IMG/VR virus record: IMGVR_UViG_2563366990_000020 | Location: 1-12,311 of that record | DNA length: 12,311 bases | Direction: 5' to 3' (one strand) | DNA from: a virus | Lineage: Duplodnaviria > Heunggongvirae > Uroviricota > Caudoviricetes | Part shown: positions 1-1,195 of the stretch, one piece after another | Numbering within the stretch: position 1 is the first letter of the stretch | Layout of the letters: every line of letters begins with the position of its first letter | The notes under the pieces: generated by a model | The model's input: the letters and a program-made list of their open reading frames with translations, nothing else | Database searches by the model: none | What the model was told of the DNA's origin: nothing | Translations under genes and position numbers: made by a program

Positions 1-303
1 ATGTTTGATAGGGAAATGATAAACGAAAATAAAGAGGCGTTTTTTCTGTATGTTAACGGTAGAGGGGAGTTGTCGGCTCAATGCGTGATAAAGGTGGCTG
101 AAAAAGGGGATTATTTACAAGGATACTCTTTAACTCGTCGCGCATTTCGTACCTTTTTGAAAGACCGTGTTATTCAGATGTTTTCTAGCGACCAGGAGTT
201 GAATAAGGTTGCATCTGAAACTGATTTCAGTCAGTATATTGCCCCCCCCCCGAAAATCTTCACCCAAAAAGAATTCAATTTCAATTTGTTTTACCGGATT
301 TGA
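1..303 (+). CDS. WYL-like domain ORF; probably the N-terminal segment of a frameshift-interrupted WYL/BRCT gene, and may continue upstream of the window
   Basis: Frame-1 ORF beginning with ATG at nt 1 (window edge, so the true start is uncertain). Residues about 14-58 (FFLYVNGRGELSAQCVIKVAEKGDYLQGYSLTRRAFRTFLKDRVI; nt about 40-174) match the WYL-domain signature as I recall it from PafC-type proteins (RWYLVG...AIRTFRLSRI). Frame ends at TGA 301-303, shortly after a C10 run at 242..251. Deleting one C joins this frame to ORF 209..1195. AT-rich (19 G+C in the first 60 nt by hand count). Confidence 0.5.
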   Translation: MFDREMINENKEAFFLYVNGRGELSAQCVIKVAEKGDYLQGYSLTRRAFRTFLKDRVIQMFSSDQELNKVASETDFSQYIAPPPKIFTQKEFNFNLFYRI

Positions 304-1195
304 CCAGTCTGATAAATCTCGCTTAAGTGCTCTTGCAAAAGAAAATGGTATTGATGTTAAGTCTGATGTTGGAAAAAGTTTGTTTTTCCTTTGTGTAGGA
401 AAGAACAAAGGGTGGCGGAAAGTTCAGAAAGCCAGCGATTATGGCGTAATTATTCTGACAGAAGAACAATTTATCAATTTTATTGATACTGGTGAAATTC
501 CTCTTGAGCAAGACTGCGTGGTTGAGAATGATATCAGTAAATCGCTTGAGAAGGATGTTAACACTTACAAGAGTATGATAGATGAGTTCTCGCTCTCTAT
601 CCGTACTGTAAGGGAGTTTCGCCGTAGTAATGCGTTGATTGCGGTATTTGTTGATGGTTACGCAGCTGGTTGGCGCTTTGCTGTAAAAGAGTGTTACAAG
701 GATTCTTTGGATATAAAACTTACCCCAGTAAAAACAGAGTTTTTTAATTATGAAATTTGGACGCAAGGGGATTCCTTTCAGTTTAATCGCGGTGATGTTT
801 TTTATAGTGATCGCCTAGCGTATGATTCTTATTGCGATTTTTTAAAGCTTGATGATGCTGTCGTTCTTCAGGTGAAATATGAGTGCTTTTCTGGTTACGA
901 TTCTGTAAGTACTTTTGATGGTGTGATGGATGGTGAGTTTTCTTTTTCTCGTATGGAACCCAGACCTGTCCATAAATTACCTGTGCTGATTGAAACTCAA
1001 CTGTATGACCCCGGAAAGATTATTGTTGATGTTTTTGTTCCTGATGCTGCGAAAAAACAATTAAAACTTAAAGACACCTTAGAGCTGAAGCAGGATGAAT
1101 TTGTCTGTTTACTTCAGTCAGGGTGTTGTTGGGTTAAACGGAGGGAAGCAGGAGATAAGAAAAAACCTGAATTTATTAACCTATTCAAAAAATAA
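209..1195 (+). CDS. BRCT-like domain protein with uncharacterised C-terminal domain; probably the continuation of the 1..303 frame after the C10 tract
   Basis: Frame-2 ORF, ATG at 209 preceded by AAGG with a 4-nt spacer, stop TAA at 1193-1195. Residues about 23-95 (ISICFTGFDQSDKSRLSALAKENGIDVKSDVGKSLFFLCVGKNKGWRKVQKASDYGVIILTEEQFINFI; nt about 275-495) align by eye with the BRCT fold pattern of the C-terminus of NAD-dependent DNA ligase. The remaining roughly 230 aa carry no motif I can assign. Composition is clearly more AT-rich than the rest of the window. Confidence 0.7.
   Translation: MHLKLISVSILPPPRKSSPKKNSISICFTGFDQSDKSRLSALAKENGIDVKSDVGKSLFFLCVGKNKGWRKVQKASDYGVIILTEEQFINFIDTGEIPLEQDCVVENDISKSLEKDVNTYKSMIDEFSLSIRTVREFRRSNALIAVFVDGYAAGWRFAVKECYKDSLDIKLTPVKTEFFNYEIWTQGDSFQFNRGDVFYSDRLAYDSYCDFLKLDDAVVLQVKYECFSGYDSVSTFDGVMDGEFSFSRMEPRPVHKLPVLIETQLYDPGKIIVDVFVPDAAKKQLKLKDTLELKQDEFVCLLQSGCCWVKRREAGDKKKPEFINLFKK
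242..251. repeat. homopolymeric C10 tract inside coding sequence, at the junction of the two overlapping reading frames
   Basis: Read directly: g at 241, then ten consecutive C (242-251), then g. Encodes APPP in frame 1 and PPPR in frame 2. A C9 allele (or C12) would give one continuous ORF from nt 1 to the TAA at 1193-1195. Confidence 0.95.

Follow-up and report, generated by a model that had tools for sequence, protein, structure and literature searches.

The gene that opens the window (the whole stretch of DNA analysed here, 12,311 nucleotides long) raises the question of what an AT-rich, apparently broken gene does beside the tail genes of a phage. The open reading frames at 1–303 (frame 1) and 209–1195 (frame 2) overlap at a run of ten cytosines and belong to one gene, which occupies positions 1–1195 on the plus strand and is interrupted by this C10 tract at 242–251. 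Deletion of one C in silico yields an uninterrupted reading frame of 397 residues, in agreement with the single C9-corrected frame proposed in the preliminary description; with C9, C12 or C15 the full-length product has 397–399 residues. The difference in composition pointed out there was also confirmed, with a GC content of 38.2% for the gene and 58.0% for the tail and baseplate genes (2315–12311), and 48.8% for the spacer (1196–2314). AT-richness is common to the whole family, whose genes have 33–44% GC versus 41–58% in their respective loci.

The product is a soluble, three-module protein consisting of a WYL-type barrel, a BRCT domain and a β-rich C-terminal domain. It matches phrog_36782 from end to end (E 6e-74) and phrog_2561 with its first 167 residues (E 2e-37), both of them uncharacterised groups, and the family alignment (A2), which has 48 invariant columns, is conserved throughout the three domains. 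Structure models were predicted separately for the two window-encoded pieces on either side of the frameshift. The layout of WYL-like, BRCT and unassigned domains that had been read from the sequence holds, on the evidence of the BRCT profile score and of the solved WYL domains nearest to the barrel. The suggestion that this architecture belongs to no characterised family also stands: existing names are generic (phrog_36782, 'unknown function'; NCBI, 'BRCT domain-containing protein') and fusions of WYL and BRCT domains receive a one-line mention in PMC4012209. A literature search for studies of WYL-BRCT phage proteins or BRCT defence proteins returned only a 2014 domain survey and unrelated papers.

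The N-terminal domain (1–198, plus strand; residues 1–66, frame 1) is modelled as a five-stranded, Sm/SH3-like barrel that starts at residue 13, and structure comparison identifies WYL domains as its nearest solved structures, with PafBC and DriD as the top matches. In profile searches, PF13280 is matched by 5 of 24 homologues (best E 1e-4) and not by the window protein, for which the PADLOC WYL model gives E=0.027. PafBC and DriD are WYL activators that act as ssDNA-responsive DNA-damage regulators, and ssDNA is bound in the solved structures of DriD and CapW, according to their descriptions; by analogy with these families, the WYL module of the window protein may bind single-stranded nucleic acid. 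BrxR, CapW, DriD and PafBC are transcription factors built of a wHTH, a WYL and a C-terminal dimerisation domain. In contrast, the window protein begins with the barrel, matches no HTH family even at E≤10, and continues with a BRCT and a further domain unrelated to theirs. It falls outside this class of WYL regulators.

The BRCT domain (269–505, plus strand; residues 90–168 of the C9-corrected protein, frame 2) matches PF00533 over residues 90–159 with 35.4 bits (cutoff 21.3), and the profile is hit by 24 of 24 family members. The only PDB profile matches are the BRCT domains of RFC1 (E 9e-6) and LigA (E 2e-4). The FTG motif and the lysine of GxxKxxKA align with those of the RFC1 and LigA domains, and FTG and Lys140 are invariant or nearly so in the family. 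With these nearest relatives and a conserved T-G loop and α2 lysine, the domain falls by sequence into the RFC1/LigA-type subclass of BRCTs, in which the 5'-phosphate of DNA ends and nicks is bound at the FTG-loop and GxxKxxKA lysine positions. The families involved thus point to a module that would bind 5'-phosphate DNA ends or nicks. Unlike RFC1 and LigA, the window protein has no clamp-loader or ligase catalytic module. PADLOC holds no model for the protein beyond an overlap with candidate PDC-S48 that is restricted to the BRCT part (profile positions 324–406 of 411, E 4.9e-7).

The WYL-like and BRCT domains are joined by a linker (199–268, plus strand) that holds the poly-C tract; it is the least conserved block of the alignment and has a pLDDT below 50 at residues 80–83. 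A second linker (506–577, plus strand), also a variable block, comes with a predicted long helix (residues ~175–199). The C-terminal domain (578–1195, plus strand; residues 193–397 plus the stop codon) represents an unnamed family of 778 clusters, mostly small stand-alone proteins, and has no known fold neighbour. Among 61 diverse members, the only invariant residues are Phe216, Leu236, Gln255, Gly256 and Phe261, the only near-invariant polar residues are Arg208, Asp237 and Thr254, and no recognisable effector chemistry was found. To judge from this pattern of conservation, the domain has the appearance of a binding module and not of an enzyme.

The C-terminal domain is also found split from, or permuted with, the WYL and BRCT domains, and its gene neighbourhoods were sampled at about 20 loci. 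The gene order is CI, WYL-BRCT gene and C-terminal-domain gene at locus L017; repressor, a fused C-terminal-domain-BRCT gene and int at L039; repressor, a SWIM-like gene, C-terminal-domain gene and int at L040; and repressor, a 67-residue gene and C-terminal-domain gene at L045. Since such fusion and fission recur in unrelated phages, the modules are expected to work together. In temperate phages, the typical place of this family is between a CI-type repressor and the integrase.

The element that carries the window gene is a P2-like (Peduoviridae) E. coli prophage of ~33 kb, integrated in the terminator hairpin of ytfP, with the att core duplicated at both prophage ends. The window gene is its terminal accessory gene. 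Upstream lie the prophage end (att) and the host gene ytfP, and not the partner genes that the preliminary description had thought might be there. The order in the circular phage is C-int-attP-gene; because the phage integrates into the ytfP terminator, the gene ends up last, beside hok. The gene had been described as convergent on a tail operon. It does oppose the prophage's minus-strand genes for tail, baseplate, tail fibre and tape measure (2315–12163), which were assigned from the prophage map of NZ_CP148318 and from Pfam (HP1_ORF34, Caudo_TAP, Phage_tail_fib, Tail_P2_I, Baseplate_J, DUF2590 and PhageMin_Tail), but a hok/gef-family type I toxin gene of 46 residues intervenes (1310–1450, minus strand; Pfam HOK_GEF, 22.9 bits; annotated in RefSeq at loci L001 and L002). 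This hok gene travels with the window gene in E. coli and is also found after a 58%-identical homologue (P0002); a search of the whole window against Rfam returned zero families, so that no curated hok/sok RNA model was matched. A GC-rich hairpin just 3' of the stop codon (1203–1219) carries a T-run on the minus strand alone, and it therefore probably terminates the convergent transcript of hok.

The gene is present in 2 of 5426 complete genomes. The same tail end is found at ~98.5% identity in 12 complete E. coli genomes, only two of which contain the gene, both in ytfP-integrated copies; the copies examined at other sites (n=2, serS and prpB) end in hok-hok-att without it. Its location inside the prophage borders, its GC content (38% versus 58%) and its absence from two close, near-identical relatives identify it as an accessory ('moron') gene, as its position had suggested from the start. 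An exchange of the window gene for the 58%-identical homologue at a hotspot was considered and rejected, as the whole phages are equally diverged (65–76% nucleotide identity).

The homologues lie in the lysogeny operon. Full-length homologues in Pectobacterium, Aeromonas, Yersinia, Enterobacter and Salmonella follow the order repressor, zero or one gene, homologue and integrase, all encoded on the same strand, where stop and start codons often overlap, and the same repressor-homologue-integrase arrangement is found at three IMG/VR loci. Many isolated phages have only the short WYL-BRCT form, which argues that the sensor can act without the C-terminal domain. This form follows CI immediately in PHL101 and PV94, and its position in Yersinia phage MLG42 equals the C-int-attP-gene order of the window phage. 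The neighbourhood survey thereby strengthens the idea of a prophage accessory gene that, from its position, would be expressed in the lysogen. In most relatives, expression would come from the repressor operon; in the window phage, it would depend on read-through from host tamAB-ytfP, as integration would leave the T-run of the ytfP terminator at the opposite prophage end. In the lysogen, a simple scan of the sequence that precedes the gene detected no plus-strand promoter. Known defence systems are reported to have minor hotspots in the int-att and int-primase regions of P2-like phages (bioRxiv 10.64898/2026.02.27.708500).

The window gene is a credible candidate for a new factor, carried by a prophage, that acts in phage defence or in the control of lysogeny. 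The reading that we favour, tentatively and at somewhat under an even chance, is that it encodes a sensor of DNA ends and ssDNA that is expressed in the lysogen and serves superinfection exclusion or abortive infection. According to this proposal, both DNA modules would bring the protein to abnormal DNA, for example the linear DNA of an incoming phage or intermediates of replication and recombination. The C-terminal domain would then stop the invader through partner binding and not catalysis, and the outcome would be exclusion of the superinfecting phage or abortive infection. Points against this reading are that the C-terminal domain shows no recognisable effector chemistry, that many phages carry the short WYL-BRCT form only, that OFF is the most frequent tract state in E. 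coli, that few complete genomes have the gene, that PADLOC matches it only through the BRCT part and that the promoter scan was negative.

The lambda rexAB genes are exclusion genes within the lysogeny operon, and RexB is a membrane protein. Like rexAB, the ltp gene of TP-J34 and glo of K139 are non-essential, lie near the repressor and integrase, are expressed from the prophage and protect the lysogen, and the window gene would follow the same genomic logic. A proven exclusion gene, located in a lysogeny module and transcribed from the prophage, is ltp of Streptococcus thermophilus phage TP-J34, which encodes a lipoprotein of the cell surface that keeps DNA from entering; Glo of Vibrio phage K139 is periplasmic (PMC3952083). 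In contrast to Ltp, Glo and RexB, the window protein has no hydrophobic segment (maximum Kyte-Doolittle value 1.1), which rules out a membrane exclusion protein, and it carries predicted DNA-binding modules. It would therefore act inside the cell, on DNA.

The tight and widespread link to repressor and integrase is equally compatible with a function in controlling the lysogeny of the phage itself. The protein would in that case sense damage (ssDNA through WYL, breaks or gaps through BRCT), and the C-terminal domain would act on the repressor, the integrase or host recombination and so tune induction, excision or integration. We consider this alternative unlikely, though it is the strongest of those weighed. 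The slot between a CI-type repressor and the integrase is kept in very different phages, down to the short form that directly follows CI in two of them; the top structural matches of the barrel are ssDNA-responsive damage regulators, and the C-terminal domain resembles a binding module more than an enzyme. However, the gene is dispensable, as the near-identical phages at serS and prpB do without it, and most E. coli copies are frame-shifted, yet the prophage is kept. Integration of the window phage parts the gene from the C-int operon, and the protein lacks an HTH or other DNA-reading domain of the kind found in regulators. Relatives at two loci (L031 and L032) have self-cleaving S24-type CI repressors and already possess RecA-coupled induction; since such repressors need no extra damage sensor, a role other than induction is favoured.

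A further question is whether the window copy is functional at all. The C10 homopolymer (242–251, plus strand) encodes a proline run in the first linker and shifts frame 1 to frame 2, so that the window copy is OFF. In a gene of such composition, about 3.6e-6 runs of ten or more cytosines are expected by chance, and a composition survey of the family genes showed that the other members have no poly-C tract. Alleles with C15 and C12 are present as near-identical genes in two complete genomes, C9, C10, C13 and C7 were deduced from the forms of the ORF in public assemblies, and C10 is also found in two IMG/VR contigs. Six or more different tract lengths (C7, C9, C10, C12, C13 and C15) are therefore represented among genes that are otherwise 98–100% identical, with C9, C12 and C15 ON and C7, C10 and C13 OFF. 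Among E. coli assemblies, OFF is the most frequent state, with C10 on about 90 contigs. In all alleles seen, the 314 codons 3' of the tract are unbroken and carry no further lesion. Among draft contigs, at least 229 stop just 5' of the tract and 50 begin just 3' of it; Illumina errors at long C runs add to such breaks.

An intragenic repeat of variable length in near-identical alleles, with in-frame and out-of-frame forms of an otherwise intact ORF, has the features of a contingency locus. The hypervariable tract and the contig breaks suggest phase variation, in which slippage in the C tract, inside a disordered proline linker, would toggle expression. Variation between assemblies does not by itself prove reversible switching within a clone. 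The ON and OFF alleles circulate in E. coli, partly in Shiga-toxin-producing lineages. Defence genes controlled by homopolymers or other simple repeats include pglX of Streptomyces Pgl/BREX, with its G tract, and restriction-modification mod genes; here, likewise, a long G/C homopolymer lies within the reading frame and length variants of otherwise identical alleles switch the frame. To our knowledge, intragenic homopolymer switches are not well documented in E. coli or its prophages, and we know of no precedent for a poly-C phase switch in coliphage genes.

The same tract could instead mark the window copy as a decaying pseudogene, with differences in length that reflect mutational noise and homopolymer errors in sequencing and assembly. 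This explanation is improbable, and marginally more so than lysogeny control. The window copy is indeed out of frame, C10 is the commonest assembled state, with C7 and C13 also OFF, the gene is rare among complete genomes (2/5426), and the weakness of short reads at long C runs could account for many of the contig breaks. Against this, about 90 contigs and the two IMG/VR contigs share an identical C10, which is therefore an allele and not a random error, and alleles with the in-frame lengths C9, C12 and C15 are known, of which two come from finished genomes. The codons past the tract are intact in all alleles seen, the tract lies in a disordered linker where extra prolines would be harmless, and the family is conserved across all three domains with its invariant columns.

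An enzyme, either of a DNA-repair or ligase type or a PD-(D/E)xK nuclease effector, is highly improbable: the 'DNA ligase' label of short relatives (phrog_2561 and several RefSeq phage records; others read 'putative exonuclease') and weak matches to the NCBIfam LigA model come from the BRCT end only (profile positions 542–652 of 652, 30.5 bits against a cutoff of 444), domain profile searches detect no adenylation, OB or exonuclease domain, and the PD-x11-ELK string, which the preliminary description had itself suspected to be chance, consists of residues (Asp348, Glu361 and Lys363) that are all unconserved in the family alignment and lies in a region modelled as β-strands with no nuclease-like neighbour in the PDB. 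A ligase, exonuclease or PD-(D/E)xK nuclease identity is thus refuted at the level of both sequence and fold. As the phrog_2561 label derives from the BRCT domain alone, the 'DNA ligase' labels are misnomers, and this annotation of short forms in RefSeq phage genomes is wrong and should be corrected.

More broadly, the C-terminal domain, together with DNA-sensing partners that can replace one another (WYL-BRCT, BRCT or SWIM-like), may form a widespread, unrecognised lysogeny-operon module, which would provide a new kind of cytoplasmic immunity to DNA ends and ssDNA without a known effector enzyme, with a poly-C phase switch in E. coli; we regard this extended proposal as possible but doubtful. 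If the window protein is protective, it would represent a new class of prophage defence, in which the sensor reads DNA structure (ends, nicks or ssDNA) and not phage proteins, and a function would be provided for ~780 clusters of unannotated phage proteins encoded between repressor and integrase. If it instead serves induction, P2-like phages would have a new route for reading DNA damage. The ON and OFF alleles of one gene in circulating E. coli constitute a natural experiment, and the state of the C tract could account for differences in phage sensitivity between strains.

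The gene under study occupies positions 1–1195 of the window (plus strand), as the preliminary description had placed it, and comprises two overlapping open reading frames, ORF 1 (1–303, frame 1) and ORF 2 (209–1195, frame 2), with a run of ten cytosines (C10, 242–251) at their junction. Removal of one C gives a single ORF of 397 residues, in agreement with the C9 correction proposed earlier. The compositional contrast described there also holds, with a GC content of 38.2% for the gene and 58.0% for the minus-strand phage genes (2315–12311). A run of ten or more C residues has an expectation of ~3.6e-6 in a gene of such composition. 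The encoded protein is devoid of any hydrophobic segment.

The length of the C tract is variable; C7, C9, C10 and C13 were deduced from the ORF forms in public assemblies. The gene is in frame (ON) in C9 (the 397-residue allele, two contigs), C12 and C15 (one finished genome each), and frame-shifted (OFF) in C7 (13 contigs), C10 (~90 contigs, two IMG/VR contigs and the window itself) and C13 (seven contigs). At least 229 draft contigs stop at codons 71–80, immediately 5′ of the tract, and ~50 start immediately 3′ of it; the weakness of short reads at long C runs contributes to these breaks. The tract encodes prolines of a disordered, poorly conserved linker and is absent from other family members. 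The length variants between assemblies are the signature of a putative simple-sequence contingency locus.

The gene is intact in two complete E. coli genomes (loci L001 and L002), where it is annotated as a 'BRCT domain-containing protein' and forms the terminal gene of a P2-like prophage (~33 kb) inserted between ppa and ytfP, which contains integrase, C-type repressor, Cox, replication gene A, ogr, portal, terminase, capsid and tail genes. Homology to K-12 ends at the ytfP terminator hairpin, where a ~17-bp core (GCCACCTTCGGGTGGCG) is found that is repeated, with one mismatch, beside the integrase. The intrinsic-terminator hairpin of ytfP (L001, 11844–11865; L009, 13158–13175) therefore serves as the att core. 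The gene begins ~135 bp within the prophage, and the partner genes formerly suspected upstream are absent. In the lysogen, CGAAAATT directly follows the hairpin and the terminator T-run lies at the integrase end, so that upon integration the host hairpin that precedes the phage gene loses its U-tract. Read-through from the same-strand tamAB-ytfP is thus plausible; a simple scan found no plus-strand promoter for the gene. On the circular phage map, C, int, attP and the gene follow each other on a single strand. The same tail end (~98.5% identity) is present in 12 complete E. coli genomes, and the gene in only two of these, namely those with the ytfP-integrated copy; the two non-ytfP copies examined (serS and prpB) end in hok-hok-att. 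The gene is accessory. The chpS-chpB toxin-antitoxin pair, located between ytfP and ppa in K-12, is absent from the lysogenic strain, in which only near-ytfP downstream sequence remains beside the prophage integrase (L009 12809–13265, compared with L008 2236–3123).

Full-length relatives are confined to 24 clusters (35–59% identity) from Enterobacterales and Aeromonas, and their alignment contains 48 invariant columns distributed over all three modules. PF00533 (Pfam) matches residues 90–159 with 35.4 bits (cutoff 21.3), bearing out the BRCT-like segment of the preliminary description, and matches all 24 family members. A search of PDB sequences with the family profile returned only the BRCT domains of RFC1 and LigA (E 9e-6 to 3e-3). 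Both the FTG loop and the GxxKxxKA lysine, invariant or nearly so within the family, align with these domains, at positions that form the 5′-phosphate pocket of the DNA-binding BRCT class. The window protein did not match the Pfam WYL model, its sole sequence match being PADLOC WYL (E 0.027); PF13280 is matched by five of 24 homologues (best E 1e-4). The AlphaFold model of residues 1–83 (pLDDT 88) is a five-strand barrel with a helix, and ssDNA-bound DriD and CapW structures are among the matches of this domain. No HTH was found in the protein, which is therefore not a regulator of the BrxR/CapW type.

In Pectobacterium, Aeromonas, Yersinia, Enterobacter, Salmonella and IMG/VR proviruses, the homologue is flanked by a CI-type repressor and an integrase, all on one strand, and stop and start codons of adjacent genes often overlap; this operon is expressed in lysogens. 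The 58%-identical E. coli homologue occupies the same ytfP-proximal site adjoining hok, in one case beside a different P2-like phage. In isolated phages, only a short WYL-BRCT version of 160–178 residues occurs, directly after CI in PHL101 and PV94 and after int-attP in Yersinia MLG42; its 'DNA ligase' label is a mislabel.

The C-terminal domain (residues ~193–397) is predicted to be mostly beta (pLDDT 80), is covered by no Pfam family, and has as its sole viral fold match an uncharacterised 168-residue phage protein. A profile search retrieved 778 clusters (E≤1e-3), mainly stand-alone proteins of 150–230 residues. Locus L017 has a split form, with a 186-type CI followed by a 176-residue WYL-BRCT gene (34% identity to the 58%-identical homologue P0002, E 3e-28) and a 225-residue C-terminal-domain gene. 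The domain is permuted in P0080, P0090, P0121 and L039, the last with the order repressor, fused C-terminal-domain-BRCT gene, integrase. In L040 it is paired with a SWIM-like protein, flanked by repressor and integrase, and in L045 it follows an HTH_3 repressor. That the domain has time and again been fused to, split from and rearranged with WYL and BRCT in the same operon argues for joint action of the three modules. In L043 and L044 (1888–2352, 2345–3094), a stand-alone C-terminal-domain protein and an RNase_T (DEDDh) exonuclease are encoded in one operon, a hint of a nuclease partner for some lineages; the exonuclease takes the place of repressor and integrase there. Among 61 diverse members, only F216, L236, Q255, G256 and F261 are invariant and, of polar residues, only R208, D237 and T254 nearly so; this conservation is more suggestive of a binding module than of an enzyme. 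The PD-x11-ELK string, a weak hint in the preliminary description, is not conserved in the family, and the PD-(D/E)xK nuclease reading was rejected, as were ligase and exonuclease readings of the protein. A second type of protein, of ~295 residues and with a C-terminal BRCT, recurs adjoining the gene (L026 5708–6592; L037 3492–4379) and may be a further module partner; in P0090 and P0121, where it is fused to the C-terminal domain, phrog_3989 takes the equivalent position. P0021 (485 residues) is longer at its C-terminus, and the added part aligns as a second BRCT domain would.

Directly downstream of the gene, there is a convergent hok/gef-family type I toxin gene (1310–1450, minus strand) and, between the two, a hairpin (1203–1219) that is probably the hok terminator; the gene does converge on the tail genes as first described, with these two elements intervening. 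The window has one hok copy, compared to two in tandem in related genomes (L001 13315–13455, 14037–14177). Across the whole window, the gathering threshold was attained by no Rfam family, and thus no curated hok/sok RNA model was matched. The ~800-bp stretch between hok and the tail genes (1500–2314) is of intermediate GC content (49%), and no convincing gene was found in it; a 101-residue ORF (1607–1912, minus strand) may correspond to a RefSeq 96-residue 'hypothetical protein' in the matching stretch (L001 14334–14624). The first ~110 bases of the ~800-bp stretch match ogr/Delta-annotated regions of hundreds of E. coli genomes, which suggests a P2-type right-end remnant. The tail-fibre gene (5838–7904, minus strand) is an intact 688-residue ORF with Phage_tail_fib, Phage_fiber_2 and Collar domains. 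In each of the four inspected RefSeq loci (L001, L002, L046 and L047), the tail fibre is annotated as two pseudogene fragments ~517 bp apart, which reflects either an artefact of annotation or a variable segment in its middle.

We tentatively favor a cytoplasmic sensor of abnormal DNA that is expressed in lysogens, on the grounds of the gene's accessory status, AT-rich composition, place in the lysogeny operon, hok neighbour and C tract. The WYL domain would sense ssDNA and the BRCT domain 5′-phosphate ends or nicks, the C-terminal domain would bind some partner and thereby block superinfecting phage, and the poly-C tract would toggle the protein ON or OFF. Exclusion genes within lysogeny modules have precedent (PMC3952083), and in P2-like phages known defence systems are reported from the int-att and int-primase positions (bioRxiv 10.64898/2026.02.27.708500). 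The universal linkage to repressor and integrase and the ssDNA-bound structures among the WYL matches speak for another role, that of a regulator which senses DNA damage and acts on induction or recombination of the phage itself; however, the gene is dispensable, most copies are frame-shifted and some relatives already have S24 self-cleaving repressors, and we consider such a role unlikely. That the window copy by itself is a pseudogene or artefact seems rather improbable; the 314 codons 3′ of the tract are undamaged in every allele.

No member of the family is characterised: PHROGs and NCBI names are limited to 'unknown function' and 'BRCT domain-containing protein', and PADLOC has no model for the protein. 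A domain survey of 2014 (PMC4012209) already included WYL+BRCT fusions, and the gene falls among prophage accessory genes with a putative WYL sensor. What is newly documented is an unnamed domain family of lysogeny operons, together with a candidate poly-C switch.
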